Shown: positions 3,962 through 61,761 of the stretch, piece after piece
How the letters are laid out: every line of letters starts with the position of its first letter
Numbering within the stretch: position 1 is the first letter of the stretch
IMG/VR virus record: IMGVR_UViG_3300042305_001561
Span: 895 to 64,894 of that record
DNA length: 64,000 bases
Direction: 5' to 3' (one strand)
DNA from: a virus
Lineage: Duplodnaviria; Caudoviricetes
The notes under the pieces: model-generated
What the model saw: only the letters and a program-made list of their open reading frames with translations
Database searches by the model: none
Told to the model about the DNA's origin: nothing
Translations under genes and position numbers: made by a program

Positions 3962-4363
3962 ATGGCTTTACTAAAGAAAATACTAGAACAACAAGGTGGT
4001 GATATAGAAAATAAAGTGGCGGCATTTGAACGCACGCTACAATCATCATACCCAGAGTTGGATAAAGTAGGAATGTATTATGATCGTAGTAATGGCAGTT
4101 TGTTTCTTAGCGACCTTTATGTAAAAGAAGAGCACAGAGGAACTGGTGTAGGCACAAAAGTGATGAATAGCATTACAAAGTTTGCTGATACTGAAAACTT
4201 GCCTATTGTGCTAATACCAGAGCCAGATGATGATAATGTTTCGCCAAAAAAGTTGATGGATTTTTATAAGAAGTTTGGATTTATAATAAACAAAGGCAAA
4301 CGTATGGATTATACATTTAGTATGCCTTTTGCTACAACGATGTATAGAATGCCAAAAAGTTGA
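3962..4363 (+). CDS. GNAT acetyltransferase with MALLKKILE leader
   Basis: LYVKEEHRGTGVGT acetyl-CoA motif, FYKKFGF. Confidence 0.8.
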   Translation: MALLKKILEQQGGDIENKVAAFERTLQSSYPELDKVGMYYDRSNGSLFLSDLYVKEEHRGTGVGTKVMNSITKFADTENLPIVLIPEPDDDNVSPKKLMDFYKKFGFIINKGKRMDYTFSMPFATTMYRMPKS

Positions 4364-5479
4364 TTACTTCTTTTTGGTTGTTAGCCTGCCGTATTCAGCA
4401 AGTTTTTGATCTATATACTTTTCTATAGTCTTGTCTGCCACTTCAACAACTTCTCCACTCTTATTGGTCTTGTATTTTGTGTTCCATTCTTGCAGGCTCT
4501 TTTTTACCTGACCATATGTTTCGCCAGAAGTTTCCTTGAGATCTTGTATGGCGTTGACCATATTGTCATTACTTGTTTCAGCAATATTGTGTCTGTATAA
4601 TACATAACCAATGGCAGCGGCGGCTCCAACCAATCCGACCGTAAGTACCATCCAAGGTTGAATATACATTATTGCTACGGCTACAAATGCAAGCACAAAT
4701 GATATAACTGCTAATCCACCCTTACCAACCGGAGAATATACTGCACCAGCCATCGCTATTGCTGCTCCTATGCCACACCATATCATTATTTCACGTTTGG
4801 TCTTTTCAAGTTTTTCCGCACTTTCGCGTCTTTCTTTTTCGGCAGTAATGGCTGCGGCGGATGAAGCAAGTGCTTCGCTGTTTGCTTGATTCACTTTTTC
4901 CTGTGCTACTGTTATTTGTTTGGCAGCAGTTTCTTTGATTTCTTCTTTTTGTACTTGAAGTTGTTTTACTTCTTGCTTTGCTTCTTCTGTAGTTTTTACT
5001 AATACTCCCTTTTCCGCCAACAACTTTTCGTTTTCTTCCTGAAGTCGCTTTATTTCATCCTTGTTATCTTTATCAAACGCATCAATGTATTCTTGTAGTT
5101 TTTTTGGACCATTCAGTATTTCGTCGATAGTTGGAGATTTACCAAGAGCAGCAAAGCCAAGTCCAGTTTCACGCTTTGAATACTCAAATGCACCAACCTT
5201 TGGAAAAAAAGCATATGCTTGGTTTATAGAATATAACGAGTTTGCCGCACTCTGTATCTGCTTTTCTTGAGCGGTTATAACACTGTCTTTTGCAGCAGAT
5301 ATACGTTCTTGAACTTCAATCAAATCCTTGTTGTATTTGTCTTTTAGTTCTTTTAGTTGCGACTCTGCTTGTGCTTTTTTGACATACTTATCTTCCAAGT
5401 CTTTTTGTGTCATTGCCACATACGATTGGCAACCAGTAAGCATCAATAGCATCGCAAACAATAAAACCGTTGCTTTCAT
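4364..5479 (-). CDS. lipoprotein with long coiled coil and C-terminal TM helices
   Basis: Lipobox LTGC, K/E/Q-rich helix, hydrophobic segments from IMIWCGIG to IGYVLY. Confidence 0.65.
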   Translation of the reverse strand: MKATVLLFAMLLMLTGCQSYVAMTQKDLEDKYVKKAQAESQLKELKDKYNKDLIEVQERISAAKDSVITAQEKQIQSAANSLYSINQAYAFFPKVGAFEYSKRETGLGFAALGKSPTIDEILNGPKKLQEYIDAFDKDNKDEIKRLQEENEKLLAEKGVLVKTTEEAKQEVKQLQVQKEEIKETAAKQITVAQEKVNQANSEALASSAAAITAEKERRESAEKLEKTKREIMIWCGIGAAIAMAGAVYSPVGKGGLAVISFVLAFVAVAIMYIQPWMVLTVGLVGAAAAIGYVLYRHNIAETSNDNMVNAIQDLKETSGETYGQVKKSLQEWNTKYKTNKSGEVVEVADKTIEKYIDQKLAEYGRLTTKKK

Positions 5480-5480
5480 A

Positions 5481-5837
5481 TTATTGTAGTGTTAGATCGC
5501 CTTGAAACTTTACACCCAAAACTTTTTCTACAAGTTTTAATGCGGCATTTTGATTTCCGGCATTTACAAGATCATCAAACTGTTGTTTTTCGGCGTCAGT
5601 TGCTTTCTCAAAAAACTTGAACACTTCCATTATACCAGCATTGTTGGCATAAATCGCTTCTTTCATCGCAGGCGTTTCTTTTTTATTATGCTTATCAGTA
5701 TCAAACGCATTTATTGTCCAACGACCAGACATATCACTAGTAATGCCAGCGTGCGGTTCTTTTATCTCCGAACCTCCTTCGTTTATTGCTTCCTGTATAA
5801 GAAAGCAATAATGGTCAATTGGATCATAGTTTACCAT
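5481..5837 (-). CDS. hypothetical protein (LIQEAINE leader-like)
   Basis: ORF coupled to upstream gene. Confidence 0.55.
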   Translation of the reverse strand: MVNYDPIDHYCFLIQEAINEGGSEIKEPHAGITSDMSGRWTINAFDTDKHNKKETPAMKEAIYANNAGIMEVFKFFEKATDAEKQQFDDLVNAGNQNAALKLVEKVLGVKFQGDLTLQ

Positions 5838-7390: not shown

Positions 7391-7646
7391 TACGCACTCC
7401 TATTTTTCCTTTTAGCATATTGAGTGCTGCTCTTGGATTCATCTTGCCAAAATTCACGCCAAGAATACCGTGTTCATTACAAAATTTTTCCAGTTCCTTT
7501 ACATCTTCGGGATTATATTCCATAGTGGCTGGTTCAGATGAACGATTCTTCAGCATATTTGTAATATCTGATAAAGATACTTCGTCCTTTGCTTTACCAG
7601 ATGGTCTAAGCATAGATCTATTTAGCATTGGCCAAGATTCGTTCAT
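7353..7646 (-). CDS. hypothetical protein
   Basis: Start at MNESW, after a TATTTAT motif. Confidence 0.55.
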   Translation of the reverse strand: MNESWPMLNRSMLRPSGKAKDEVSLSDITNMLKNRSSEPATMEYNPEDVKELEKFCNEHGILGVNFGKMNPRAALNMLKGKIGVRNEPTIKKGMLYG

Positions 7647-7689
7647 ATATATGGTCTTATATAAATATAATCCAACAGCACTAATACGA

Positions 7690-8115
7690 TTATTTATAAC
7701 TGCCAAGACCCAACTTCTTCTTTTCGTCGTCTGTTAGTATATTTTTGATGAAATGTTTGGTGTATCTGCCAGAAAGTATGTTTGCCTCATCTTCTATCTC
7801 GCCGCCGATCTCTTGTTGTGGACCAGATATTCTGCCATCAACATCCTGCTTCATATGAGCCAGTTCATGTGCAATTGTTCTACAATAATCTACAAGATGT
7901 CGCCCGCCCGCTATACTACTTACTGTTTTATCTTTTGGACTATATGCCCCAGTAGTAATAGGTTCACTTGGATTAGGTCCAAGCAATCTGATAGTAATAG
8001 GCGTATCATCCAATCCAAGTTGCTCAACAGCATATTTTACATACTTGGCAATAAGACGTTGACTATCTTCGTCTATTTTAGGGCATCCTTTGACTATTAC
8101 TAACTTAGCATTCAT
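7690..8115 (-). CDS. HEXXH zinc-metallopeptidase-like protein
   Basis: RTIAHELAHMKQ...IEDEAN. Confidence 0.7.
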   Translation of the reverse strand: MNAKLVIVKGCPKIDEDSQRLIAKYVKYAVEQLGLDDTPITIRLLGPNPSEPITTGAYSPKDKTVSSIAGGRHLVDYCRTIAHELAHMKQDVDGRISGPQQEIGGEIEDEANILSGRYTKHFIKNILTDDEKKKLGLGSYK

Positions 8116-9656: not shown

Positions 9657-10310
9657 TTATAGTTTTACAATTAGAGTTTTGGAATAAGGATGAACTGTAC
9701 CAGAATCATCCACAACACAAAGTCCTTTCATTCCACTTTCTTCATACTCATATATTTCACCATGAAAATTTCCCATATAAACTTCAACTTTTTCCATGTT
9801 GAGTTCTCCGGTTTTATTTTCCGCAAAAAATTTTTTAACGGTTGTTGCTTTTTTTAGAGTGAATTTTTTAAATGCCGGTTTGGATAGTATATCTGTTGAC
9901 CCAAACCCACCTTCGCCTCTTTGAGTATTATCCAATCCAGTCGTCTCGACAAAATCAACGGGATTATAAAATTCAAATATGATTTGAGCAATCTTGTCTC
10001 CAATAACGACGTTGACATCTTCTTGGCCAAGATTGATAAGAATGACTCCAATTTCTCCGCGATAATCTTCGTCAATGACACCTGCCATAACATCTATGCC
10101 TTTTTTGTATGCGAGACCGCTTCTTGGCGCAATTCTACCATACATCCCAGACGGAATAGACATAGACAACCCAGTCTTGAATAGTTTTCTTTCACCGGGC
10201 TTCAAAATATGAAACTCTGTGGTATACAGGTCATATCCTGCTGCTCCAGCGCTTCCCCGAGTAGGAATGATTGCTTTGCTTTCTAGTTTTGTAATAGATA
10301 CTTTTTTCAT
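9657..10310 (-). CDS. dut: dUTPase with C-terminal extension
   Basis: AGYDL, APRSG, GVIDEDYRGE, AQ, RGEGGFGST. Confidence 0.95.
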   Translation of the reverse strand: MKKVSITKLESKAIIPTRGSAGAAGYDLYTTEFHILKPGERKLFKTGLSMSIPSGMYGRIAPRSGLAYKKGIDVMAGVIDEDYRGEIGVILINLGQEDVNVVIGDKIAQIIFEFYNPVDFVETTGLDNTQRGEGGFGSTDILSKPAFKKFTLKKATTVKKFFAENKTGELNMEKVEVYMGNFHGEIYEYEESGMKGLCVVDDSGTVHPYSKTLIVKL

Positions 10311-10352
10311 AAAATTTTAATATACACTAACTATCAAGTCTGTGTGTGTCAA
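10303..10352. repeat. 50-bp direct repeat, copy 1 (copy 2 at 11037-11086)
   Basis: tttttcataaaattttaatatacactaactaYcaagtctgtgtgtgtcaa, one mismatch. Confidence 0.9.
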
Positions 10353-10354
10353 AC

Positions 10355-11044
10355 TCATAATAGATGGGCAATTTTTAAAGTATTTTCGGTGAATGGACCG
10401 TTATCGTGCACCATTATAGGATTTGACTCTATAATAAATTTTTCATTTCCTTGTTTAACAAGATTTTTGTTTTCTAACGTGCTAAAAAACAGTTTGTTTG
10501 ATTGATCTACTTTAATATCATTAGTATACAAATACTCCAATGTCCAATGCCCTTGGTCGTCACATGAAGTTCTGTTCAACTTTATTATTTCTTCCATATG
10601 ATTTATAATTTTATCCGTATATCCGAAATATATTCCCGAGTTTAAAAAGAAACTGTCAGAAAATTTTTCTTTAGTTTCATATAAATTTCTTTCCTGTATA
10701 GGTGGCCACATCCACTTTTCTGCACAAAAAACTATATTACAGTTGTACGATTTGAATATATCAACTATGTCATTCGGTTCTCTGTAAAAATTTGTATCCT
10801 TGGCGTCAGCAAATAATATGTACTCATATTTTCCCAAAAAATGTTCTTTGTAATATTCTATATTTTTTACTACTTTGTAATAATATAATTTTTCGGCCAA
10901 AGATAACTCTCTGCGTGACTCGTCAAAATATCTAATTATATGAATATCATTTTCATCAAAATACTTTCTAGCATTATTGTAAAAACAAGGAATATAACTG
11001 GCCAGATAGTCAAATAATGTTGTTACTAAAGCTATGTTTTTCAT
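10355..11044 (-). CDS. glycosyltransferase (PLOD/GT-A-like domain)
   Basis: ILFADAKD, VFCAEKWMWP, FLNSGIYFG, DDQ. Confidence 0.7.
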   Translation of the reverse strand: MKNIALVTTLFDYLASYIPCFYNNARKYFDENDIHIIRYFDESRRELSLAEKLYYYKVVKNIEYYKEHFLGKYEYILFADAKDTNFYREPNDIVDIFKSYNCNIVFCAEKWMWPPIQERNLYETKEKFSDSFFLNSGIYFGYTDKIINHMEEIIKLNRTSCDDQGHWTLEYLYTNDIKVDQSNKLFFSTLENKNLVKQGNEKFIIESNPIMVHDNGPFTENTLKIAHLL

Positions 11045-11086
11045 AAAATTTTAATATACACTAACTACCAAGTCTGTGTGTGTCAA
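11037..11086. repeat. 50-bp direct repeat, copy 2
   Basis: Matches 10303-10352. Confidence 0.9.
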
Positions 11087-11359
11087 TCCGTAATCGCCTT
11101 TCCAGCCTTCTTCACTCAACCCAAATATTATATGCTCTTCAGTTCCTTCCACTCTATATATCACCATATTTGGATGTTCTTCCGATGTTACTTTCTTGTA
11201 TTTTACAAACTTGGCTATTTCTGGTTCTAGTAGGAACTCATCAAACAACTTAGTGATCTGCTCCAACGGAGTTTTTCTTACAATAACAACTCCACGACCA
11301 TTTCCGCCAAGGCCACGAACATAATCGACTACAAATATAAAAAGATTTCTAGGGTTCAT
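11051..11359 (-). CDS. hypothetical protein
   Basis: ORF in operon. Confidence 0.55.
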   Translation of the reverse strand: MNPRNLFIFVVDYVRGLGGNGRGVVIVRKTPLEQITKLFDEFLLEPEIAKFVKYKKVTSEEHPNMVIYRVEGTEEHIIFGLSEEGWKGDYGLTHTDLVVSVY

Positions 11360-11360
11360 A

Positions 11361-12572
11361 TTATACCTTTATAAGTGTTTTGCTTAAATCTTTTACAACC
11401 TTTGTTTTAAGCTTAAATATTCCAAGTTCAAAGTCCGAGTTATTTTCTACACCATCTTCCGAAAGAATGTCTGTTATTTTCATGAGTATACCCGCATTAC
11501 TATTACCGTCTTTCATAAACTCATCTTGGCTGAAATAAAGTAATATGTCGTTATTTACTTCTTTAATATAACCGTGATTGAGTATACGCTTCCGGAGATC
11601 AATCTTTGTGGTTTGCTGTTCTTTTTCTATATATCTTTCAGCACAACCCATATTGTCTACAAAGATATTCGTGGCCCAAGGTTCAACAAAGTGTAGAAAA
11701 TCTTCTGTTATAACATTTGTTAGTACAAATCCAATATTATACACAGGATGCTTTATTGGATGATGGTTTTCATCAAATGCCATCCAATGATGCCATTTTC
11801 TAATATAGTTTCTACGTGCTCTGTTCTGATAGAACTTGAACATATCATCATCTTTACCTACTCCATTCTTGGCCCAACTTCTGTGTCCTCTGCTGATCCA
11901 ATGCCAGCACAAGCTATCTCTGCTTTGTATAAGCTTATATCCAGCAAGATGAAAACGTAGAAACAAGTCCGCATCTTCTTCCGGGTATGGAGCAAAACTT
12001 TTAGCATCGTGACCGCCAATAGCCAAGAAATCATCTTTGCCTATCATCCAAGGAGCAAATATCCCGTTTGTTGTGACATCTTTTCTATCTTTTTGTTCTT
12101 GTTCAACAAATGCATCAAATTCGTTTTTCTTGAATTCGTGAAACTCTATACCAAAAGGTTTTAGTATCTTCTCTTTTCCCGGTGGATATATCCCTTCCGG
12201 TTCAATTCGTGTAGCACACACCACCGTTTTTTCTTTATAATGCTTGAGCATATTCTCAAGATAGTTTTTTCCACAAATCATGTCGCTATGGAAAATAGTA
12301 ACAAGTGGGGTTTTTGCCATCTTTATTCCTAGATCATATGTTATTGTATGTCCGAGAATATTTCCCGTGGTGTTCTTCCAACCGCGAAGATTGTTATCTA
12401 AATTTATTTGAGCGTCCAGATAATCAGCACTCCCGTCTGTACTACCATCATCCAATATAATAATTTCGTTGTTCGGATAATATTCCCGAATACTTCGGTA
12501 TGCCATCAATGTATAATTTAATGTATTATACGATGGTATTATGATTGAAATGTCTTTTGTAGTATATTTCAT
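11361..12572 (-). CDS. GT2 glycosyltransferase
   Basis: SIIIPSYN, DDGSTDGS, HSDM, EDADL. Confidence 0.9.
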   Translation of the reverse strand: MKYTTKDISIIIPSYNTLNYTLMAYRSIREYYPNNEIIILDDGSTDGSADYLDAQINLDNNLRGWKNTTGNILGHTITYDLGIKMAKTPLVTIFHSDMICGKNYLENMLKHYKEKTVVCATRIEPEGIYPPGKEKILKPFGIEFHEFKKNEFDAFVEQEQKDRKDVTTNGIFAPWMIGKDDFLAIGGHDAKSFAPYPEEDADLFLRFHLAGYKLIQSRDSLCWHWISRGHRSWAKNGVGKDDDMFKFYQNRARRNYIRKWHHWMAFDENHHPIKHPVYNIGFVLTNVITEDFLHFVEPWATNIFVDNMGCAERYIEKEQQTTKIDLRKRILNHGYIKEVNNDILLYFSQDEFMKDGNSNAGILMKITDILSEDGVENNSDFELGIFKLKTKVVKDLSKTLIKV

Positions 12573-12754
12573 GTTTTTCCGTGTTCTATACCAACTACAT
12601 CAAGTAGTTGTTGTTCTTTTTCAGTCATTTCGTTGTATACTCTATACAACTCTTTTCGCGTCTTGTTAGCAAGCAATCCGTCCTTCTCGCCTTCATCAAT
12701 GCAGCGTTGCAGTTTATAATACAACTCAAAATATTTTTTAGCAGCTTCTGTCAT
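12569..12754 (-). CDS. hypothetical protein (MTEAAKKY start)
   Basis: ATGA-coupled ORF. Confidence 0.55.
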   Translation of the reverse strand: MTEAAKKYFELYYKLQRCIDEGEKDGLLANKTRKELYRVYNEMTEKEQQLLDVVGIEHGKT

Positions 12755-13049
12755 ATTTTTTCATTTACTATAGTTGCGTCAAATTCTTCAATATAGCACC
12801 ATTCACCATCCCACCGTTCTTCTCCAACCGCATAACCAATGTTCTGTTCGCCAACATTATCTCCACACACCCGAACTCCTCTAACAAATAGACCTGCCTC
12901 CTTTATTGCCGTTTGCCATTGCTCCAATGTAATGCGATACAAATTATTCGGCGGATTAGAATAATAATCATATACCTCAGTTCCTTCTTTGAACCAAGTA
13001 TCATGTTTGGCAATCAATTTTACATATTTTTTAGCAGCCTCTGTCATAT
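12731..13049. repeat. 26-bp direct repeats (12731-12756 and 13024-13049) flanking ORF 12751-13047
   Basis: atattttttagcagcYtctgtcatat. Confidence 0.85.
12751..13047 (-). CDS. hypothetical protein (MTEAAKKY start)
   Basis: ORF bounded by direct repeats. Confidence 0.55.
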   Translation of the reverse strand: MTEAAKKYVKLIAKHDTWFKEGTEVYDYYSNPPNNLYRITLEQWQTAIKEAGLFVRGVRVCGDNVGEQNIGYAVGEERWDGEWCYIEEFDATIVNEKI

Positions 13050-13933
13050 AATTCCGGATTGTTATTATAACGGGTTCGCATTTGTTCTGAAACTTTTATA
13101 AAACCAACTTCATCATATGATGGCGGTTCTCCCCATAATGTCAACCAAGTTTTAAAGTTTTTCTGTTCGCTCAACTTTTGTCTATCGGATGTACCAACCA
13201 GTTTGTCGTGTTGTCCAAGGAAATGACTGCTACGTGCACCAAAGTGCCATACAAGTGCTTTACCAGATACAACAAAATCGTATCCTTTTAGTTGCATAAG
13301 CACACTTTGCATATGATCCTCAAAACTTGACGGGGCGAATCTTTCGTCGTTGGGTATAAAATGCTTTGTTCGCATCATATATGATACGCCTTCAACTTTT
13401 CTAAAGTCGGGAGCGTTGGACGATTTTACAAACTCATCGGCCCAATATAAAAATTCTTCTTTTAAGAAATCGTGATGATATACACCAAATCCGCCATTTA
13501 CTGGAGCAAATGCTGTTCCTAGCCTATCTTGATTGTTAAATATGTTGGGCTCAAGACGCCAAGCACAACCGACTATTTTCCTGTCAGTAGATGATACAAT
13601 GCCATACAAAGGTTTGTCGTAATGGCGACTGATGTACATATCACTATGTATAAGACTAAAGAATTCAGTCTGCACTCGTTTGATTGCTTCATTGACTCCG
13701 CCGCCGATTCCTTTTGGGTTTTCATTTTGTTCGTAAATAGTTTCTATATCTTTTTGTTCTAATAACCAATCTCGTGTTTCAGTATCATTTTCTGTATAAA
13801 CAATGATTGGTTGGTTCTTGTAATAAGCATTTTCTCTTATAGATTCAACCGCCAACTTCAAATATGGAAGCGATTTATAGCTATTGATTATCCAAGTATA
13901 CTTGGCATCGGCTTGATTTTCATTCATATTCAT
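13031..13933 (-). CDS. GT2 glycosyltransferase
   Basis: IINSYK, HSDM, FEDH, WHFG. Confidence 0.8.
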   Translation of the reverse strand: MNMNENQADAKYTWIINSYKSLPYLKLAVESIRENAYYKNQPIIVYTENDTETRDWLLEQKDIETIYEQNENPKGIGGGVNEAIKRVQTEFFSLIHSDMYISRHYDKPLYGIVSSTDRKIVGCAWRLEPNIFNNQDRLGTAFAPVNGGFGVYHHDFLKEEFLYWADEFVKSSNAPDFRKVEGVSYMMRTKHFIPNDERFAPSSFEDHMQSVLMQLKGYDFVVSGKALVWHFGARSSHFLGQHDKLVGTSDRQKLSEQKNFKTWLTLWGEPPSYDEVGFIKVSEQMRTRYNNNPELYDRGC

Positions 13934-14696
13934 ACGTTTCCGCTTTTTTTCTCAAGTCTAGATAATCTTGCATCAAATTATTCTTTTTGAAAAACTTATA
14001 CTGTCCCTCTTCCGCTCTACGACAATATGTTGGAATATCAAGACCAGCAACTCCTTTTTTTATAGTAACTGAGTTATGATGTAAGATACAGCATCTATCA
14101 ACAATACCAAGCTTGTATCCTTTTTTCTTGGCTACCAACGCAAAATAAAAACAAACTCCCCAACCATACATCAGATCAGAATCTATCTCTTTTACTTCTT
14201 CCAACATTCTGCGTGAAATCAACGGAGTTTGAAAGTCGATATAATCGACCTGCCTGATGCCATTTGCATTCCAATTGTGCATGCTTTTCCAATGGCACTG
14301 TTGATTCGGTTCTATGTTGTAAATGGAGGGAGATACAATGTCATACTTTATTTCTAGACTTCCCCACTTTCCGGCGAATATCTCCCCGAACATTTCCTCT
14401 CTTAGTGTTCTTACGTGATTGTATGGATGAATCGTAAGATCGTTATTGGAAAATATCATACTGTCATATTGCGGATTTTCCAACACATACTGCATTCCTG
14501 CATTGAATCCTCCTCCCATATATACATTATTTTCTAGTTCAAAACTGCTGTATTTGCTTTTTCCTTCGAGAGAAGACCCATTATCTAACACAAACAAGTC
14601 ATAATCATTTCTTTCATATGGCTTGAGAGATTCATACAGCATATCTGTATAATCTGGTAAGTTATGATTTAATATAAAAAATGCAGTTTTACCCAT
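13920..14696 (-). CDS. GT2 glycosyltransferase
   Basis: ILNHN, VLDNGS, NNDL, YGWG. Confidence 0.8.
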   Translation of the reverse strand: MGKTAFFILNHNLPDYTDMLYESLKPYERNDYDLFVLDNGSSLEGKSKYSSFELENNVYMGGGFNAGMQYVLENPQYDSMIFSNNDLTIHPYNHVRTLREEMFGEIFAGKWGSLEIKYDIVSPSIYNIEPNQQCHWKSMHNWNANGIRQVDYIDFQTPLISRRMLEEVKEIDSDLMYGWGVCFYFALVAKKKGYKLGIVDRCCILHHNSVTIKKGVAGLDIPTYCRRAEEGQYKFFKKNNLMQDYLDLRKKAETYEYE

Positions 14697-15114
14697 AACT
14701 GGTTCCTCCATTGAATATTTTCATTTTGATACTTTTACCAGACATCTCGGCGGGTTCTATAAAAAACTTCTTGTCTGGTTGCGTGATGCTAAAAAATAGT
14801 TCAAGTTCTTCTTCATCGTCCGCAAACATCATAAATGATTCATCTGTGCCACTTTCTCTGCACTTGAACAGGTTGTACTTCGTAGTAGCCACCGTAGTAT
14901 ATCCTTCTCTGTGTTTCATTGCTTCGGATATAATCATAAATTCGGCTGCGATGATTGCCGCGACTTGTATGGTTGTTACAATATTAGTACGCCAAGTATC
15001 AGCCAATATGGCGTCTTTTATATAGAATAAAGACATAACCATTAGTGGCAGACCAATGATGGAAAATAAAACCATCAAATAAAAATACAAACTTTTCTTT
15101 GGTTTAGAAGTCAT
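14689..15114 (-). CDS. membrane protein
   Basis: Two N-terminal hydrophobic segments; TTGACA promoter upstream. Confidence 0.55.
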   Translation of the reverse strand: MTSKPKKSLYFYLMVLFSIIGLPLMVMSLFYIKDAILADTWRTNIVTTIQVAAIIAAEFMIISEAMKHREGYTTVATTKYNLFKCRESGTDESFMMFADDEEELELFFSITQPDKKFFIEPAEMSGKSIKMKIFNGGTSYG

Positions 15115-15162
15115 ATAATCTTGCAATCATAGCTAATTATGTCATATTGTCAATCTATAGTA

Positions 15163-16041
15163 TCATACAGATTTTATTATATCTATGATTTGTTGAGCAC
15201 GAGTTTCTGCACGATGATGTACATTTACTTTACTGTATATTCTTTCTGCCAAAGTTTCACGAACATATTCATTATTTAGCAAATACTCTATTTGCTCGAC
15301 TGCTTCCGTTGGATTGGAATAATACATTATGTCTTTTCCATCTACAAACAGGTCATATATACCTGTAGCGGCTGATATGCGATTTGTAACTACAGCAAGC
15401 TTACATCCGCCAGCTTCAAACAACCGTCGAGTGATTTCGTCATATCTGGCATACTGAAACGCAACTGTGCCAGAATTATAAAATGATGTATTTTCCTGCG
15501 GTGGTATTTTTTTATTGACGAATTTATCTCCAAGTGAAGATTGAATATAATTTATTCCCGGCCTATCTCCGCAAGTTGTGACACAGACATTTTTTCTTGG
15601 TATTTCTTCTTTATATTTGAATAAAAATTCATCTCCCCAATGATTCAACCAACTCACATGGTTAAGACCCATCTCCTTATATTTTTGAAAACATCTAAAA
15701 TCTGGAGTAAATGCCGCATCAACATATTTAATTCTCTCAAAAGCTTGACCAAAAGTCTGTGGTTCGTCTCCAAGCTCTATTATTATTTTTCCATTATAAC
15801 ACGTTCTTATTTTTTTTATCTGATTATCCAGTGAATTGGAAGTCCAAGGCCAAAAAACACTTATGAATTCATATTTTGCTATGTTTGAATACAATCTATC
15901 CAAATTGCAATTCGCCGCATCAAACTTATATATATCTATGCTGTGTCCCAATCGCTTGAAGGCAAATGAAAGTCCGAGAGGACAATTCCAGTAATCTTCC
16001 GGCCCACTGTCATCTCCGTGCCATAACATTGCTATGTTCAT
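15163..16041 (-). CDS. GT-B glycosyltransferase (CgeB/GT4-like)
   Basis: RRLFEAGGC, LFVDGKDI, C-terminal GT-B domain. Confidence 0.75.
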   Translation of the reverse strand: MNIAMLWHGDDSGPEDYWNCPLGLSFAFKRLGHSIDIYKFDAANCNLDRLYSNIAKYEFISVFWPWTSNSLDNQIKKIRTCYNGKIIIELGDEPQTFGQAFERIKYVDAAFTPDFRCFQKYKEMGLNHVSWLNHWGDEFLFKYKEEIPRKNVCVTTCGDRPGINYIQSSLGDKFVNKKIPPQENTSFYNSGTVAFQYARYDEITRRLFEAGGCKLAVVTNRISAATGIYDLFVDGKDIMYYSNPTEAVEQIEYLLNNEYVRETLAERIYSKVNVHHRAETRAQQIIDIIKSV

Positions 16042-16862
16042 AGTTTTTCAAGTATTTTATCTACCGCTTGAAATATAGTGTATTTTTGACGAAAGCCAAG
16101 ATTTCTTATCTTTTCACAATCCATGAAGAAGTTCGGTGCTTGAACTATTTGATGAAACTCTGGCACATCTACGTATGTTATTTTACTCGTTGATCCGGTT
16201 TTTTTGATTACATAATCAATGATATCTATGAGTTTAATGCTTTCTTCTGCGCCAATGTTATATATTTCATTAAATTTTCCACTATGCGTTGCCAAGTTTA
16301 TAGCAGCACATACATCTTCAACGTGCATGAAATTTCTGTAATTGTCTCCTTTGTATATGCTTATTGGCTCGTTTCTAACAACGTTTCCAATGAGATATTC
16401 AAGTGCATTCTTTTTCTTTCCTGCACCAACATCGCCACCAATTACATTGCACAAACGTAATATTCTATAATTTCTATGGAATGTACGGCAAAATGACTCT
16501 GTAAGATCCTCTGCGGTTTTTTTTGTGATTGAATAAAACCCCTTTGGATTGCACGGGTCGCCTTCTTTGGCTGGACGATATTTGGTATATCCCTCGCCAT
16601 ATACAAACCAGCTACTTACGAAATTGAATGTACCTTGAACGTTTGGCAATACATCCATTAGCTTATTCAGATTGGTGTTGATGTCTTTATGAAGATCATC
16701 AAACACATGATAGTTGTGAGTTGTGCTGATAAGATATAGCACATCTTTCATATTCTCGGACCAATTTTCGTCGCGAGGCATTATTATGCTTTTTTGAGGA
16801 TATAGTTTGGCAAAATTACTGCCAACAAATCCAGATCCGCCAAATATTGTTAGTTCGTCCAT
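16038..16862 (-). CDS. NAD-dependent epimerase/dehydratase/reductase
   Basis: GGSGFVG, SSWFVYG, YSITK, RNFMHVED. Confidence 0.85.
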   Translation of the reverse strand: MDELTIFGGSGFVGSNFAKLYPQKSIIMPRDENWSENMKDVLYLISTTHNYHVFDDLHKDINTNLNKLMDVLPNVQGTFNFVSSWFVYGEGYTKYRPAKEGDPCNPKGFYSITKKTAEDLTESFCRTFHRNYRILRLCNVIGGDVGAGKKKNALEYLIGNVVRNEPISIYKGDNYRNFMHVEDVCAAINLATHSGKFNEIYNIGAEESIKLIDIIDYVIKKTGSTSKITYVDVPEFHQIVQAPNFFMDCEKIRNLGFRQKYTIFQAVDKILEKL

Positions 16863-18160
16863 GTTGATAATGCAGTTTCAATATGATTTAGATTGTCCGA
16901 AGATATTGTTGGAGCACAGCCGACGAAGAATACGAGATCAAGAACTTTATTTGATTCTGGATATTTCTTATAATCATCGAGATGCTTGTATCCATTATGT
17001 ACGAGCAAGTTTCCAGCAAAATAGTTTCTGGTCTGCACACCGTTCTTTTCCAAGAACGCAACAAGCGTTTCCTTTTGCTTTTTATCTCTACAAATAATAG
17101 GCACACCGAAAGGAACCCAATCTGTTTCAGCAAATGTGTTTGGAAAATTCAAACCATCAACATACTTCTTCAATGCGGATTGTATCGCGTCCTTGTTAGA
17201 TTGTCTTGTCTTACAGATATAATCAAGTTTCTTCAACTGCTCTAGACCTATGGCAGCTTGTAGGTCCAGTGGCTTCAAATTCCAGCCAATTCTATTGAAT
17301 ACATATTTGTGGTCGATAATAAGTTCTGGGAACTCTGGTAGCCAGTTTGAAAATCTCTTATTACACGAACCATTGCACAACAAGTTTGCTGCCCCCACGC
17401 AATAACAATCTCTGCCCCAAGTACCAAAGCTTCTGGCCAAATCAACAATTTCTTGTATGTCCGAAGACACCATTCCGCCTTCAAGAGTTGTTATTTCGTG
17501 TGCTGGATAAAAAGAACAACTGGATACTATAGCATATTCGTTTAGGTATTTTCCACGCCATTTTGACCCAAGAGAATCGCAATTGTCCAGCAAGAGTTTC
17601 AGGTTATGTTTTTTGGTAATAGCAAGCATTTCGTCCATATCTGGAGGATTACCCAACACTGGGCTAAGAAATACTGCCTTGGTTTTTTCAGTTATCTTTT
17701 CTTCAATCTTTACCAAATCAAAATTCAACGTTGACCATTCAATGTCTATAAACACTGGCTTTAGATTATTATGTACAATTGCAGACACGGTAGTTGGAAA
17801 TCCTACCGCAGAAACGATGATCTGATCACCATCTTTCCATCCAAAATATTCCTTGCACGCAGCAATCAAAAGCAAATTGGCACTCGATCCGCTATTGCAA
17901 AAGAACGAGAATTTATTATCAATGTGTCGTCCGAACTCTCGCTCAAATCTTGCACAAGTTTCTCCGGAAGAAGACCACTTTCCGAATAATAGTGCTTCTA
18001 TGGCAGCTACCAGTTCGTTATTATCAAAGTACGGACCTGAATAGTATACCTTCTTCTTATCTTTTGCCACAATATTGTGAGCAAACTTTGGCACAAATCC
18101 ATATTTGGATGTCATACTTTCTATGAATTTATAAATTTCTTCTCGTTGATTGTTTTCCAT
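16850..18160 (-). CDS. rfbH: CDP-4-keto-6-deoxyglucose 3-dehydratase (RfbH/DdhC-like)
   Basis: NSGSSANL, DNCDSLGS, SFYPAH (His in place of the aminotransferase Lys), RDCYC...C, DHKY. Confidence 0.8.
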   Translation of the reverse strand: MENNQREEIYKFIESMTSKYGFVPKFAHNIVAKDKKKVYYSGPYFDNNELVAAIEALLFGKWSSSGETCARFEREFGRHIDNKFSFFCNSGSSANLLLIAACKEYFGWKDGDQIIVSAVGFPTTVSAIVHNNLKPVFIDIEWSTLNFDLVKIEEKITEKTKAVFLSPVLGNPPDMDEMLAITKKHNLKLLLDNCDSLGSKWRGKYLNEYAIVSSCSFYPAHEITTLEGGMVSSDIQEIVDLARSFGTWGRDCYCVGAANLLCNGSCNKRFSNWLPEFPELIIDHKYVFNRIGWNLKPLDLQAAIGLEQLKKLDYICKTRQSNKDAIQSALKKYVDGLNFPNTFAETDWVPFGVPIICRDKKQKETLVAFLEKNGVQTRNYFAGNLLVHNGYKHLDDYKKYPESNKVLDLVFFVGCAPTISSDNLNHIETALSTWTN

Positions 18161-18165
18161 AAATT

Positions 18166-18744
18166 TTATTTTTTTATTGCCGTTGTGTTTAACCCTTGCG
18201 GATCTCCTACGTTATATCCCATACTTCCTAAAAACAGAATAAGGTCAGTATATCTTTGTTCTTTTCTGTGTACCCCGTCGATGTGCATAGATTCAAATTT
18301 AATACATTTAATATTACACTTTCCAAAGTCTATGCTTTTTATTATTTCATAATCATATCCTTCTGCGTCGATAACTAGAAAATCCAAGTTTCTAATATCA
18401 TATTTATCAACGATATTTGAAATTGTCAAACAATTAACGCTAATTGATCTTATCAATTTATCTTCAACGCCGTGATCGGTCAAGTGCTGTTTTTTCAAAG
18501 AACTTACTTGGTAATTGCTTTCGTTTATATAATAAAATGTCTGCTCTTTTATGTCGGGGTTATTGGTTATTGCTATATTTTCTATATATACGTTTTTTAT
18601 TTCGGCGTATCTATTTTGTAGTGCGGGAATACAATATGGTATTGGTTCTATCAACACTGCTTTACTTATTTTATCCCGATTTGAAGATATTAGTTCATAA
18701 ACCTCATCATCTCCATCATTCGCTCCTATTTGAATTATATTCAT
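18166..18744 (-). CDS. FkbM-family methyltransferase
   Basis: IQIGANDG, LIEP, IDAEGYD. Confidence 0.85.
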   Translation of the reverse strand: MNIIQIGANDGDDEVYELISSNRDKISKAVLIEPIPYCIPALQNRYAEIKNVYIENIAITNNPDIKEQTFYYINESNYQVSSLKKQHLTDHGVEDKLIRSISVNCLTISNIVDKYDIRNLDFLVIDAEGYDYEIIKSIDFGKCNIKCIKFESMHIDGVHRKEQRYTDLILFLGSMGYNVGDPQGLNTTAIKK

Positions 18745-26801: not shown

Positions 26802-27194
26802 ATGATTAAACTAATAGAAATATTACAAGATGTTATAGACGACGAAATAAAATTCAGTAACAAGGGTGACGGAGCAGGCTACGAGTTAGTTAAAAAAAAT
26901 CCGTTTAATATTAAAAAATTAGTTGATCGTGGTATTATATTTGTTACTAAACCCGGCAATGGTAAAGGTGGAGTAGATGAACCAAACTGGGAGGGCGATG
27001 CTAGTATTATTACATTAAAAAACCTATCCAATCCAGATCCTTGGATGAAAATAGCAATAAAAAGTCCAATGCCAAAATCCATTCCATATATACAAAAAGA
27101 TCAAGATAAATTACTTTATAATGGAAAATATAATCAAATACTTTGGGGTATTGAAAAAAAGGGATTCAAGCCCGAAGATTTTTATTTGAAGTGA
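26802..27194 (+). CDS. hypothetical protein with MIKLIEILQD leader
   Basis: TATTTAT just upstream of ATG 26802. Confidence 0.6.
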   Translation: MIKLIEILQDVIDDEIKFSNKGDGAGYELVKKNPFNIKKLVDRGIIFVTKPGNGKGGVDEPNWEGDASIITLKNLSNPDPWMKIAIKSPMPKSIPYIQKDQDKLLYNGKYNQILWGIEKKGFKPEDFYLK

Positions 27195-46135: not shown

Positions 46136-46387
46136 TTAGTCCGCTTTATCTCCAAACATGAACTTGTTGGCAATAACATCTATGTTATGAAATGCTATGC
46201 TAACCTTATCTATAATCCAAGGATCTAACTTTACAGTTTCACTTGCCATAATCTCTTTTATACGCTTACACTTTTCTTCTATGGCAGTTAGTTGATATTC
46301 AATCATATCCTGCTGGCGTTCTGGATTTAATGTTACCATTTCATCCATTACTTCTTTGATAAGGTCTTTGAGTTCTGATTTTTTCAT
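46136..46387 (-). CDS. hypothetical protein with MKKSELKDLIKE leader
   Basis: TATTTAT upstream. Confidence 0.55.
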   Translation of the reverse strand: MKKSELKDLIKEVMDEMVTLNPERQQDMIEYQLTAIEEKCKRIKEIMASETVKLDPWIIDKVSIAFHNIDVIANKFMFGDKAD

Positions 46388-48430: not shown

Positions 48431-48554
48431 ATTTATTTTATGTATTTGTCTTTTACGACTTTGAACCGATAAATATACACGTATATACGACAGCGTCAAG
48501 TAAAAACTTCTTATATATATTTTTATATATACGATTTGATATATATTATCACTT

Positions 48555-57378: not shown

Positions 57379-57594
57379 TCAAACACTTTTTTCATTATTG
57401 TATAACCGCCTAAACCTTTCAGTTATCTCATACGGATGATAAAAGAAAGTTTGGCCGTCATCAAACTTGATAAAGTCAAACTGTATGCCTTTTACTTGTT
57501 TCCTTGTACCTGTATATGTTGCCATTTTTCCCGTAGGAATATGAACAAGTCGTTCATTTTCAGCGAAATGATGTTCTGCGTATGCGTTTTTCAT
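57379..57594 (-). CDS. hypothetical protein
   Basis: ATGA-coupled to the RNA ligase. Confidence 0.55.
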   Translation of the reverse strand: MKNAYAEHHFAENERLVHIPTGKMATYTGTRKQVKGIQFDFIKFDDGQTFFYHPYEITERFRRLYNNEKSV

Positions 57595-58613
57595 TCTTTG
57601 TATTTCTCCAAGAAGCGGTTTGATATTGTCTTGAAACTCAAGCGACCTTTTAGCACATCGCTGTATGTCTCAACGCTTGGACGCCAAACAATACCTTCGG
57701 CTGGTGTACCGTTAGAATAGTTCAGTTCATTGGCAATGCTCAAAAAATAATCAACACTCTTGGGCACAACATCATTACCAAGTTGAATAATATGTACAGT
57801 ATCTACAATCTTGATGTTATGTTTCTTACCAAAGCCAATCAAATCTTCTCTGTTGAGATATTTGCCACTATCAATGTCATATAGATTGAAAAGATATAAT
57901 TCAATCTCTTTGAACCCAAGACGATTTGCTTGTATGCCCGGTCCAACCATTTCACCTTGAATACACAGGTTGCGATGTTCACTGCGAAGAATCTCTTCAA
58001 GTTTGAGTTTGCGAGCCATCTTCCAATGAGCATTATCTTCTGTTTCTTTCAGGTTGAGATTGCGAGAGCATACACCAAACTCATCATCGCGACGATATGC
58101 CGTAAAACTTGTGCCGTCCATCTTTAGTGTGCCAATGAGCACCAATCCTTTATTGCTTGCTTCAACAAGCACATTTGGTTCAGATTGCAGACGAACTTCA
58201 TCTGTCTTATGTAAGAAAGATGGAAAGTTTCCTTTGACCATTCCGCTCAAATGAGCAGGTACAACAGGTTCATATTTTTCAACACCAACAAGCGATGTAA
58301 CATCCTGACCAACTTCATATTCACCTTGGGGTAGAATAGAAAGCGGCAATGCCAATCCTTGCGAAAGTTGGCCGCGAAGACGAATAGTTTTTACACGCAG
58401 TTTCTTATCTGCTTCCTTACGAAGATGATCATTCCAACTTGCGATAGGAAGTACAGAGTCAATCTCAAAATATACACACTTGTCATTTGGTTGAAACTCA
58501 TTCTTTTTTACAACACATTCCCACCCAAGAACTTTAGCACAAAGAATAGCATCTGCTCCATTTATAGGGTTCAGTTCTTTGATAAGTTGAATAGATGCCA
58601 GTTTTCGGTCCAT
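57591..58613 (-). CDS. RNA ligase, DRB0094/Rnl5 family
   Basis: RKLASI, YFEIDS, LRGQLSQGL, KTDE, KMDGTS, QGEM, EGIV, SFKTISN. Confidence 0.9.
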   Translation of the reverse strand: MDRKLASIQLIKELNPINGADAILCAKVLGWECVVKKNEFQPNDKCVYFEIDSVLPIASWNDHLRKEADKKLRVKTIRLRGQLSQGLALPLSILPQGEYEVGQDVTSLVGVEKYEPVVPAHLSGMVKGNFPSFLHKTDEVRLQSEPNVLVEASNKGLVLIGTLKMDGTSFTAYRRDDEFGVCSRNLNLKETEDNAHWKMARKLKLEEILRSEHRNLCIQGEMVGPGIQANRLGFKEIELYLFNLYDIDSGKYLNREDLIGFGKKHNIKIVDTVHIIQLGNDVVPKSVDYFLSIANELNYSNGTPAEGIVWRPSVETYSDVLKGRLSFKTISNRFLEKYKE

Positions 58614-58694
58614 AATGCTATTACCATACACTATAATAACCTTTTGTCAATATGTTTTTAGCCCTTGATATATATTTATTATAATCAAGCATAT

Positions 58695-60272
58695 ATGATT
58701 TCACTACTTTCTCTATTACAAGAAGCACTTAGCGGCAAAGGATTTTATGACCAGCTTGTAAGTCCTTCGTTCAGAACACAGGATACATTCCCAGTAAAGA
58801 TAGACTTTATTGTTGATAATAAGAAAGTAGAAGTAAGTATTCCTGTAAAGATTACCATGAATAATCTAAAGCGAGAAGTTGACCAATACTTGCGTGCGCC
58901 TGGTGAAATGAAAACCAAGCTTGATACATATGCCTACTGGTATGACAACTTCAATAAGCTTGTGTTTCAAAGTATGGGAGAAAGTGATGGTTGTTTGTTC
59001 TTGGCGGCTTGCGGTTATTGTTCTGCCAACACCGCACTTGACCAAAACATTCTTGAAGCCGCTAAACTATACACCGCAGTAAAAAAAGATTTTGGTAGTG
59101 AAGAAGGTAAGCAGGCACTTTCAGATATTGCCGCTAATGTAAAGAGTAATCTAAAAGATAAAGATCTGGCGTTCTTGGCAAAATATCCAAACAGTGCATA
59201 TGCCAATCTACTTCTTCCAAAGAAAGACTATACTGGAAAGAAGATTGAAAAGGGGCCAAAGAAAGGTCAAGATGACATCTTTAGTGAAGTTACCGTGTCA
59301 AACGCCAAGATTCCAAACTTCAATACATATGTAAAGTATTACCTTCAGCATAATGGAAATGTATCAAAAGAAGAACTATACAAAGATCTTGAATCTGGTG
59401 TATTTACCATCAGCGGTACAAAAATCAACTCGTTCCTTATCAATCTTATATTTCCTGGCAAAAAATGGGCAGGCAAGATTGACCCTGCGACCATTGACCG
59501 CTGGATGATACGTGTATTCTTTGATGAACCATTGAAGAACATGGTTGAAAATGACATCACAGATTGGATTGCTCATATCCCAGACGATGAAGATGAAGAA
59601 GAAAAGGTCGATGAAGCAAAGCCAAAGAAACCAAAAAAGCCAAAGCTTTCGCCGGAAGAAGAAATGCTTGCCAAGAAAAAGAAATCATTGGAAAAAAAGA
59701 AAAATGCCATCGTAAACAAAATAGTAATGAAGCTGTTTGGCGATGATTATATACGTCAGAACCTGGTAAAGATACTACACGAAGAAGCACAAAAGATTGG
59801 TCTTACATCATATCAACTACAGGCACTTGCTTGGGTAAATATACGTGAAAGATATGATGAACCTGCTGCCAAGTTCGCCAAGTTTGAAGATGTTATGGAA
59901 TATGCCAGAGATGCTGCCAGCACAGTTATGGCAATAGATCCAAACATCAACTCGGTGATGAACACGATCAAGATACTTTCATCTGGACCAAGATTCAAGT
60001 TCACCAATCCACAACAGGTTGTTGATACAATAGAAAACGCAGAAAGATATGAAAAGGTATATTTTCTGCCACCAAAAATCGCCAAAGCAAAGAAAGACAA
60101 GGGCTCTACGATTGATTATACCAAAATCAAAGTTGGTATGGTAAGCGACAATAAGGCGGATATATACAATCTGAAAATATCCAAAAAGAAGCCGATACAA
60201 TCAATAGATGGAGCAAACAGAGCAGAAACACTCAAGAAAGTTCTTGATTGGATTTTAAACTATAAAACATAA
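58695..60272 (+). CDS. large protein with MISLLSLLQE leader and HhH/glycosylase-like core
   Basis: WY, SANT...N, GTKINSF..NL, TIDRWM, QLQALAW. Confidence 0.55.
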   Translation: MISLLSLLQEALSGKGFYDQLVSPSFRTQDTFPVKIDFIVDNKKVEVSIPVKITMNNLKREVDQYLRAPGEMKTKLDTYAYWYDNFNKLVFQSMGESDGCLFLAACGYCSANTALDQNILEAAKLYTAVKKDFGSEEGKQALSDIAANVKSNLKDKDLAFLAKYPNSAYANLLLPKKDYTGKKIEKGPKKGQDDIFSEVTVSNAKIPNFNTYVKYYLQHNGNVSKEELYKDLESGVFTISGTKINSFLINLIFPGKKWAGKIDPATIDRWMIRVFFDEPLKNMVENDITDWIAHIPDDEDEEEKVDEAKPKKPKKPKLSPEEEMLAKKKKSLEKKKNAIVNKIVMKLFGDDYIRQNLVKILHEEAQKIGLTSYQLQALAWVNIRERYDEPAAKFAKFEDVMEYARDAASTVMAIDPNINSVMNTIKILSSGPRFKFTNPQQVVDTIENAERYEKVYFLPPKIAKAKKDKGSTIDYTKIKVGMVSDNKADIYNLKISKKKPIQSIDGANRAETLKKVLDWILNYKT

Positions 60273-60280: not shown

Positions 60281-60727
60281 ATGCCAGCACCAATCATACC
60301 AGGACCAAACAATCAACTGATTACAGGATCTTTACCCACTCAGTATGGATTTACTTCAAACTATGTACAATCGGATACAGGAAGTGTAACAATAGCAAGT
60401 GGTTCAACTACTCCTGCGTCCGTTGTTAATGTTTCAATAACTACCACGGGAAATCCCGTATTTATTTCTTGTACCGGAGATGCAAACCCATCAACGGGTG
60501 GAGGGTGGTGTGTATTTCAACTATATAGAGACAGCACCGCAATTGGAAAGAAAATTCAAGCAGAAAGTTCCGATAGCAACGAGAATGTTCCATATGGAAT
60601 TACATGTATTGATAATCTGCCCGCCGGTACATATACATATTCTCTCAAAGTTACATCAATTGCTGGTAGTAATTTTACATTCGGTGAGCCAGATGGCCCC
60701 AACTTAACAGTGTTTGAAATAAGATGA
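60281..60727 (+). CDS. beta-rich hypothetical protein (fibre C-terminus-like)
   Basis: S/T/G-rich; AGTYTYSL...LTVFEI. Confidence 0.5.
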   Translation: MPAPIIPGPNNQLITGSLPTQYGFTSNYVQSDTGSVTIASGSTTPASVVNVSITTTGNPVFISCTGDANPSTGGGWCVFQLYRDSTAIGKKIQAESSDSNENVPYGITCIDNLPAGTYTYSLKVTSIAGSNFTFGEPDGPNLTVFEIR

Positions 60728-60730
60728 TAC

Positions 60731-60760
60731 AAAAAAGCCCGCCAAATAGGCGGGCTTCTT
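60731..60760. terminator. bidirectional terminator
   Basis: AAGCCCGCC-AAATA-GGCGGGCTT between convergent genes. Confidence 0.75.
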
Positions 60761-60777
60761 GTTTATACATTATCGTA

Positions 60778-61761
60778 TTATTTGGTATATAGATTTTTGA
60801 ACTTGTTGAAGGTAGATTCAAATAAAGTTTCAGTCATTGGGTCCACATTGATATTTCCGGATTTCATTGTATTGATAAATGTATCAAGTTTTCCGTCGCC
60901 ACCTTTTTCTGTTTGAGGCATTATTGCTCTTTCATATTCACCGGGACGCTGCTTTATAAGTAGAACATTTTTCCAAAGATATGGTATTATTACATTACTA
61001 ACAAATTGTACGTTGTTTCCAGCGGCGGCATCATCGGCCTCTTGCAATTTGGATTTCATCTCAGCTTCAACTATTTTAAATGATTTTAATGCAGCTTCAT
61101 TGTTATCTAAGTTTGCGTGAATCCACTTGGCAAATCCATCCTGCGCTACTTTGAACAGGTCTGTGTCCGTTGATTGTCCACCCGTAGTTGGTAGTTCTTT
61201 TCTAGTGGCTGCTATTCCGAGGTGAATCTTTTTCAAAATTGTAGTTGGATCTGATTTTCCTTCGAAGGTAATATTATATACTGGGATGACTCCTTTTGGA
61301 TTTAAACAAAAAATTTGAGACCAACGATGGTGTCCGTCGATAACATAGTTTCCAGAAACAATTATGGGTAGCATACTTCCTTTGGCATCTCTTATATAAG
61401 ATACAATATTTTCGGGCTGCTTATTGAACGGCCAATTGAGAGATTTTTCCAAAAATACTTCATTTTGCGTCGGTATCAGCGACAAAACTGGCACCTCATT
61501 TTGTTGTATCCGTATAACATCATCGTCAGTTGCCCCATCTTCTTTAGCCGCCATCAAAAATGCTTGTACCTTTGGGTCAGTAATTGCACTCTGCAATTCT
61601 TTGACGAAAGAGCCCAAATCTTTTTTCAGCATTTGTCCAAATTTTATTTTGTATTGCTTTATTTCGGCGGGAGTGAGCGACGCCTCCTCACCAATCAATC
61701 CATTTCGGCTTTCTAATACCAATTTCTTATGCTTCTCAAAGGTAGATTCAAATATATTCAT
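60778..61761 (-). CDS. ParB/Srx-like domain protein with LVLE leader
   Basis: LIPTQ, PIIVS, VIDGHHRW. Confidence 0.7.
   Translation of the reverse strand: MNIFESTFEKHKKLVLESRNGLIGEEASLTPAEIKQYKIKFGQMLKKDLGSFVKELQSAITDPKVQAFLMAAKEDGATDDDVIRIQQNEVPVLSLIPTQNEVFLEKSLNWPFNKQPENIVSYIRDAKGSMLPIIVSGNYVIDGHHRWSQIFCLNPKGVIPVYNITFEGKSDPTTILKKIHLGIAATRKELPTTGGQSTDTDLFKVAQDGFAKWIHANLDNNEAALKSFKIVEAEMKSKLQEADDAAAGNNVQFVSNVIIPYLWKNVLLIKQRPGEYERAIMPQTEKGGDGKLDTFINTMKSGNINVDPMTETLFESTFNKFKNLYTK

Follow-up and report, generated by a model that had tools for sequence, protein, structure and literature searches.

Why should eight proteins with otherwise unrelated bodies, all encoded on one viral genome fragment, begin with a similar short peptide? 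The question is raised by a 64-kb stretch (the window) out of the 64.9-kb viral contig IMGVR_UViG_3300042305_001561. The virus is an uncultured giant myovirus of T4 type. The window has a GC content of 36-39%, and most of its genes lie on the - strand. Eight genes, which would be expressed late, encode products headed by an apparently amphipathic tag of 9-17 residues that typically ends in hydrophobic-x-Glu (Table 1; genes are named below by the position of their start codon, or by their product). These tags are conserved and specific to N-termini, they are common to unrelated cargos and tied to a late promoter, and in relatives they co-occur with a T4-type head module. We favor, with a probability of about 0.6, that they are capsid-targeting propeptides in the style of phage T4; loading into the head, cutting and injection would then proceed by analogy with that phage.

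All eight start codons, N-terminal peptides and upstream TATTTAT motifs described in an earlier note on this DNA were confirmed. The common ending defined there, (I/L)-(I/L)-x(0-1)-E/D, is found in seven of the listed genes. The tag of 61761 ends in LVLE and does not satisfy it. The corresponding regular expression, [IL][IL]x(0-1)[ED], was searched for in the first 20 residues of all window genes. It is present in 8 of the 25 genes with an upstream TATTTAT and in 5 of the 69 others (Fisher p 0.005). The 8 matches are the seven listed genes and a membrane protein at 30817. In a refined test, only the first 16 residues were considered, and six open reading frames (ORFs) that overlap tRNA genes were removed (none with motif or promoter). 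Here, 8/25 TATTTAT genes were observed against 3.3 +/- 1.4 expected from composition-preserving shuffles (P 0.004), and 2/63 other genes against 3.2 expected. The motif is thus commoner behind TATTTAT than elsewhere and exceeds chance there.

The motif tests in the window are post hoc, and a repeat independent of the motif's definition was made in G001, a 297-kb IMG/VR record (CheckV completeness 100%) that is collinear with the window. In this genome, the motif heads 10 of 45 TATTTAT genes with 4.5 expected (P 0.0065), and 29 of 347 other genes with 24.7 expected. The core motif is also strongly position-dependent. Per 1000 positions, it occurs 2.27 times at N-termini and 0.06 times internally in the window, 4.34 versus 0.18 times in G001, and 3.02 versus 0.15 times in G003 (a 369-kb record with terminal repeats). 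This amounts to a 20-38-fold enrichment at N-termini over protein interiors. In an unsupervised comparison of N-termini in the window, pairs among six of the eight proteins rank near the top. Seven N-terminal pairs score at least 24, versus 1-3 in control segments; in G001, 39 pairs score at least 30, versus 4 in each control segment.

The earlier note had assumed one leader shared by all eight proteins. Instead, the eight tags fall into at least four conserved leader classes. MIKLKDILxE is the class of the GNAT acetyltransferase, the DEDDh exonuclease and the 130-aa protein, MKKSELKxLIKE that of the 83-aa protein, MKYKDFYNDxDLLxE that of the AMOP-like protein and MNIFESTFEKHKKLVLE that of the ParB/Srx-like protein. 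The single-leader model fails when the leaders are scanned over the window, as the note had proposed: a hidden Markov model (HMM) built from nine MKKSELK leaders of G001 retrieved a single six-frame ORF of the window, 46387 (27.5 bits).

In each class, the tag is conserved above its cargo and the residue before the Glu is variable. One tag is found on unrelated cargos and, conversely, related cargos carry differing tags. In G001, the MKKSELK tag heads three tandem small genes with unrelated bodies and at least five other proteins; overall, N-terminal motif matches in this genome number 17, spread over about 15 distinct proteins. Back-translated tags of the MKKSELKxLIKE and MIKLKDILxE classes retrieved >121 and >124 IMG/VR stretches, respectively, and a control with identical codons in reversed residue order retrieved 2. 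The 80 loci fetched per tag gave 78 (MKKSELK) and 82 (MIKLK) distinct proteins. Pfam was searched with 56 of the 73 MIKLK-tagged proteins of at least 90 aa, and 10 of the 56 received a label: NUDIX (two), zeta-type kinase, RimK ATP-grasp enzyme, M23 plus tail lysozyme, phage lysozyme, cell-wall hydrolase, DUF5824 (two) and beta-flower protein. For the MKKSELK tag, a single family (GP88) exceeded the Pfam cut-off among 53 tested of 77 proteins. The codons of the tags vary (Leu: TTA, CTA, CTC, TTG and CTT; Ile: ATT, ATC and ATA) with the residues fixed. Since synonymous codons are free and variation peaks at the residue before the Glu, these sequences indicate that selection on the tags acts at the peptide level.

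Table 1. Tagged genes of the window and its two RNA ligase genes (window positions).
Feature	Position	Strand	Tag (position)	TATTTAT	Surroundings
GNAT acetyltransferase, 133 aa	3962..4363	+	MALLKKILE (3962-3988)	3951-3957	solo + gene between - strand genes
130-aa protein, no family label	26802..27194	+	MIKLIEILQD (26802-26831)	26790-26796	solo + gene
DEDDh exonuclease, 284 aa	37891..38745	-	MIKLKDILKE (38716-38745)	38750-38756	terminator-like hairpin ~38772-38795
83-aa protein	46136..46387	-	MKKSELKDLIKE (46352-46387)	46394-46400	hairpin ~46412-46443
143-aa 'ParB C-terminal domain'-like protein, GTG start	52222..52653	+	MKLYLLAKKILE (52222-52257)	52211-52217	
AMOP-like Cys-rich protein, 202 aa	54453..55061	-	MKYKDFYNNDSLLLE (55017-55061)	55068-55074	directly downstream of tRNA-Trp
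525-aa protein, no family label	58695..60272	+	MISLLSLLQE (58695-58724)	58673-58679	followed by + gene 60281-60727
ParB/Srx-like protein, 327 aa, DGHHRW motif	60778..61761	-	MNIFESTFEKHKKLVLE (61711-61761)	61787-61793	hairpin ~61806-61832
RNA ligase	31938-33053				
RNA ligase	57591-58631				

The domain labels given previously hold for three proteins by Pfam-type scores, namely GNAT (PF13508, E 1.2e-8), DEDDh (RNase_T, E 7e-11) and AMOP-like (PF03782, 32.5 bits versus a cut-off of 25), and the ParB-like label of 61761 is weak. The description of four genes as solo + strand genes is correct for 3962 and 26802; 52222 and 58695 are followed by more + genes.

In alignments of the single families, the protease-type site at the tag end is kept at the equivalent position in orthologues. 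For the GNAT protein, 21 homologues picked from 75 matches were aligned with the window protein, and the 22 sequences have the N-terminal consensus MIKLKxILxE with a variable residue before the E. In its AlphaFold2 (AF2) model, the confidence score (pLDDT) is 56 for residues 1-10 and at least 80 elsewhere. One homologue (P0066) has a C-terminal extension with a tag-like LKELIKKIVRE, which may be read-through into the next tagged gene. For the DEDDh exonuclease, the hairpin, the TATTTAT and the core KLKDIL[KAI]EA are kept together in 9 full-length orthologues (67-98% identity). A further copy of 56% identity (L011, record G002, ~3001) has KLKDLLFEA and may be decaying, as it has an ATA start and in-frame stops. 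In a homologue of 35% identity (L012), the tag is absent. For 26802, the homologue L289 begins with MIKLVDLLKE, and in L292 and L293 a 26802-type body lies behind another domain that is headed by MNRLKKIIQE or MKKSKLRQIIKE.

The AMOP-like family keeps MKYKDFYNDxDLLxE in most of 9 homologues (34-92% identity), again with a variable residue before the E. The ending is missing in two of them and the whole N-terminal segment in one; an indel-rich linker follows the tag. From residue 12 onward, the 52222 protein matches the PHROG 'ParB C-terminal domain' (E 4e-37), and nine homologues (36-53% identity) align just from residue 12-15 onward. Their frame mostly extends upstream of the match, in eight cases to the edge of the 400-nt flank examined. 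The 52222 tag itself resembles the N-terminus MNLTDIAKKILKE of a G001 head-module protein. The 58695 protein has a G001 orthologue (65% identity) with a longer and different N-terminus, in which LLE|T aligns with LQE|A.

The 61761 protein is weakly ParB/Srx-like. In a family of 36 sequences, the D, G, H, H and W of the DGHHRW motif are invariant and the R nearly so. The top Foldseek matches are all ParB-N or Srx, at weak scores (best ParB-N E 1.4e-3, TM ~0.2), and no Pfam match was found at 1e-3. The tag has the family form MN[IL]FESTFEKHKKL[VM][LM]E. Among 27 homologues, selected for an N-terminal MN[IL]FE, the pairwise identity is 0.86 for residues 1-17, 0.15 for residues 18-40 and 0.31-0.45 for the body. 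Distant homologues begin with MIKLKQLLKE, MKNLLKKLVKE and similar peptides. In the AF2 model, pLDDT is 69-72 for residues 1-30 (the tag helix) and at least 91 in each of the four ten-residue blocks that follow. Relatives of 61761 and 55061 were sought in IMG/VR with no usable result, and both families were obtained from a large protein collection.

The second element common to the eight genes is TATTTAT. It occurs 51 times in the window on both strands, and 25 copies lie in sense within 50 nt upstream of a gene start. The consensus at these sites is tATATTTATw and a -35 element is absent. In the tagged genes, the motif ends 4-25 nt ahead of the start codon. In G001, it lies within 50 nt upstream of the genes for tail sheath, tail tube, portal, head-tail adaptor and tail spike, and in Flavobacterium phage immuto upstream of TerL, portal and other structural genes. 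Because of this placement before structural genes in both, TATTTAT is best read as the late promoter of the clade, its timing being read from gene context. A Bacteroidota host -7 promoter was considered for TATATTTAT and set aside, because canonical TTGACA-N17-TATATT promoters are also present in the window. A terminator hairpin abuts the promoter in three of the eight tagged genes. In 12 of the 25 TATTTAT genes (behind sites such as 3951, 26790, 38756 and 50459), the start codon follows 4-7 nt past the motif and there is no Shine-Dalgarno sequence, so many late mRNAs may be leaderless or nearly so.

The promoter has no specificity for tagged genes. Untagged genes behind it include those for secreted Ig-like proteins, a TPS-domain protein and two homing endonucleases. 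Of the 'late promoter + leader' module proposed in the earlier note, the late promoter and the conserved, portable tags stand. Joint movement of the two as one DNA module is not supported: only 32/77 and 18/82 tag-bearing IMG/VR genes (for the two tags) have TATTTAT within 50 nt.

The link between the tags and a prohead protease comes from relatives. Of the 88 window proteins, 53 match G001, with a median identity of 64%. This genome encodes Peptidase_S77 (E 5e-26) and Gp23 (E 1e-77), and its protease matches the structure of T4 gp21 (5JBL, E 3e-12). In its portal-capsid interval, small proteins are headed by MTKSQLKQLIRE, MNLTDIAKKILKE and MNTLKLKYLIE, and the capsid protein itself begins with MSIKSLLTE. 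In G003, tag-bearing genes lie on both sides of the protease gene. S77 was found in 10 of 13 tag-bearing records searched, including all 6 with a completeness of at least 90%; the three without it have a completeness of 38-64%. Five of the eight tagged genes are absent from G001. Among cultured phages, megablast with 20 kb of the window gave no DNA match. Judged by a relative's capsid protein, the nearest ones are Microcystis phage Mel-JY01 (59%), phage immuto (55%) and Rhodothermus phage RM378 (38%). The hosts of the cultured relatives are Flavobacterium and Rhodothermus, and Microcystis is named in one record.

The capsid-targeting sequence (CTS) of T4 is the textbook route for packing proteins into a head for injection, and it is used in T4 engineering. 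To our knowledge, it is known experimentally only in T-even phages and with few small cargos. According to excerpts of the papers cited here and below, the T4 tag has 10 residues, MKTYQEFIAE (PMC8442874); targeting depends on residues 4 and 7 and processing on residues 8 and 10, and an Asp at position 10 stops the cutting and leaves targeting intact (PMC9026906). The prohead protease gp21 cuts after, and prefers, I/LxE (PMC12991175). T-even internal proteins are diverse outside the tag (PMC3012670).

The same logic can be recognized in the window. In T4, a tag of about ten residues heads otherwise unrelated late proteins (IPI-III and Alt) and is removed by gp21. MIKLKDILxE equals it in length, is likewise hydrophobic at positions 4, 7 and 8 and has a Glu at position 10. 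The I/LxE ending is also similar, as are the variation of cargo genes among relatives and the lineage itself with its gp20/gp21/gp23-type head genes, known here from relatives. However, the sequences are different, with at least four classes in one genome fragment and lengths of 9-17 residues. The cargos here include recognizable enzymes, whereas those of T4 are small basic proteins, and about 15 distinct tagged proteins in G001 compare with a handful in T4. In addition, a separate late promoter precedes each gene here, and the start codon often follows it at a distance of 4-7 nt.

By this analogy, the tag would first attach the protein to the scaffolding core during prohead formation. A gp21-type protease would subsequently cleave after the Glu. 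The freed cargo (GNAT acetyltransferase, DEDDh exonuclease, ParB-type domains, AMOP-like protein and small proteins without a label) would be retained in the head alongside the DNA. In the last step, it would probably enter the next host cell together with the DNA. Core binding, cleavage, retention and injection are thus all transferred from T4.

Several observations weigh against this reading. There are no head and tail genes in the window, and no head genes in the 64.9-kb contig either, so the protease is inferred from relatives. The tags are heterogeneous, as seen from the MKKSELK-class HMM that recovers one of eight. Their likeness to the T4 CTS is one of residue pattern, and homology is not demonstrable, ten residues being too few for statistics. 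The T4-type protease site that had been placed at the tag end is present as [IL]xE in six of the eight tags. The exceptions are 61761, which ends in V-L-E with Val at P3, and 26802, which ends in L-Q-D with Asp instead of Glu; under the T4 Asp rule, 26802 would be loaded but uncut. In the GNAT model, the tag runs into helix 2-29 and could belong to the fold. As many as 17 of the 25 TATTTAT genes are untagged, among them genes for signal-peptide proteins, membrane proteins and homing endonucleases. With up to 2 mismatches allowed, the MIKLK class still has no match in phage immuto. Finally, no virion proteome was found for any tag-bearing phage: no paper turned up for Mel-JY01, and by title and abstract, none of the immuto papers listed deals with virion proteins.

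The strongest alternative, though an unlikely one, is that the tags are a common N-terminal helix for another late job (for instance, mutual docking, docking to a chaperonin or an assembly factor, or regulated turnover), and that the cargos act inside the infected cell. The tags of the GNAT and 61761 proteins are indeed modelled as amphipathic helices. Many cargos look cytoplasmic (GNAT and the exonuclease; NUDIX and ATP-grasp in relatives), and packaging is here proposed by analogy. Going by its title, one reference also reports that the N-terminus of a T4 head protein directs proteins to GroEL. Such a helix would leave unexplained, however, why the tags end in a protease motif with a free residue before the Glu, why the protease gene of G001 and that of G003 have small tag-bearing proteins around them, and why S77 is present in every complete tag-bearing genome searched.

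It is less probable still that the tags load core or scaffold components of the prohead, which are later degraded or structural, rather than injected effectors. The clearest tag-bearers do lie in the head module at the place of the T4 core proteins, and T4 gp22, gp67 and gp68 are cleaved to peptides (PMC9958956). However, a folded enzyme with a single N-terminal site is more like T4 Alt and the internal proteins, which undergo one cut before ejection (PMC9026906). Core components would also not be expected to come and go as the five genes missing from G001 do.

An element at the level of the mRNA is highly improbable. In this case, the first codons would be conserved to help translate late transcripts with almost no 5' leader, a thought that the 12 near-leaderless TATTTAT genes suggest. 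It was rejected on the codon variation in the tags, where synonymous positions are free and the residues are fixed; moreover, other near-leaderless late genes are untagged. Lastly, the K/I/L/E-rich N-termini of an AT-rich genome could yield the motif by composition, residues 2-12 of the promoter genes being rich in K, L, I and N and the motif having been defined after the sequences were inspected, but chance is scarcely credible and was rejected given the shuffles (3.3 expected, 8 observed, P 0.004), the repeat in G001, the reversed-order control (2 stretches versus >124) and the conservation of the tags across orthologues.

The propeptide reading can be compared with three further systems. 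In the giant phages SPN3US, phiKZ and 201phi2-1, a prohead protease related to that of T4 cuts head proteins after Glu, and paralogues have identical N-termini with diverged bodies; their propeptides are thought to target the prohead (PMC5694885, excerpt). The propeptide design, the Glu cleavage and the T4-related protease of these ejection proteins are alike to what is predicted here from sequence. As far as the excerpt goes, however, their sites are A/S/G-x-E and their propeptides mostly exceed 100 residues, whereas the present tags have I/L/V at P3 and are short, as in T4.

In T4-type phages, promoter-stem-loop cassettes (PeSL) border variable genes and carry early promoters. A hairpin abuts the promoter in three of the eight genes here as well, and five of the eight are present or absent relative to G001. 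In contrast to PeSL, the unit here has a late-type promoter and includes a peptide tag. Domain types such as ParB-like, GNAT and zeta-type kinase are carried by the polyvalent proteins of phages and conjugative elements. Similar domain types are present here, the 52222 homologues extend into longer frames, and the GNAT protein matches a segment of a 3925-position PHROG profile. In the present case, by contrast, the domains are encoded one by one in small genes, each of which has a tag and a promoter of its own.

A wider claim is more tentative, and we would place it slightly below even odds. Uncultured T4-type phages might share a 'capsid address code' that can be read from sequence, in which a few tag classes (among them MIKLKDILxE, MKKSELKxLIKE and MNIFESTFEKHKKLVLE) mark up to about a dozen or more cargos per genome, which are packed and injected ahead of phage gene expression. 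As part of the same claim, these cargos would include acetyltransferases, exonucleases, ParB/Srx nucleases, NUDIX hydrolases, zeta-type kinases and cell-wall hydrolases. What the window shows is the logic of T4 with different tag sequences in a distant uncultured lineage, on recognizable enzymes, and two of the tags were each found in >100 IMG/VR stretches. If the code is real, sequence alone could suffice to list the injected arsenal for thousands of uncultured phages. If borne out by proteomics, the tags would predict injected proteins from metagenomes and point to the enzymes of host takeover and counter-defence in the first minute of infection. They would also be new packaging tags for Bacteroidota phages. 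A literature search with 'MIKLKDIL' found no paper on these tags, and by titles and abstracts, none of the capsid-targeting-sequence papers listed treats such phages. A tblastn search of cultured phages with a 21-aa tag gave no match, the query probably being too short.

Some features of the surrounding DNA were noted as well. The three tandem tag-bearing genes of G001 lie together with a GIY-YIG endonuclease gene at 138577-140448 (L022/L023). Between the orthologous neighbours of these genes, the window has just a 44-nt gap (7646-7690). The replication and repair genes of the window are of T4 type and comprise clamp loader subunits, a UvsW-like helicase, two RNA ligases and a dNMP kinase-like protein. 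The window also carries a large glycosyltransferase cluster, 16 tRNAs and one tmRNA. The tmRNA and the 16 tRNA genes are located at 35271-35651 (-) and 41862-55745 (-), mixed with small late-promoter genes and homing endonucleases. A 16-kb sugar-modifying run at 10355-26419 (-) has no internal TATTTAT and contains several GT2/GT4 glycosyltransferases, an epimerase, a DegT aminotransferase and an FkbM methyltransferase. At 9657-11044 (-), a near-identical 30-nt stretch, GACTTG[A/G]TAGTTAGTGTATATTAAAATTTT, precedes both the dUTPase gene and the next glycosyltransferase gene.

At 39017-48430 (-), a set of exported-looking proteins is encoded. It consists of a tyrosinase (Tat-like signal), two Ig-domain proteins (signal peptides), a PEP-CTERM protein and a TPS-domain protein of 654 aa. 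On the + strand, a gene trio at 35978-37481 encodes a cREC_REC receiver, a phosphoesterase and a macro domain. Two adjacent small genes at 12569-12754 and 12751-13047 (-) have the common N-terminus MTEAAKKY and are probably paralogues.

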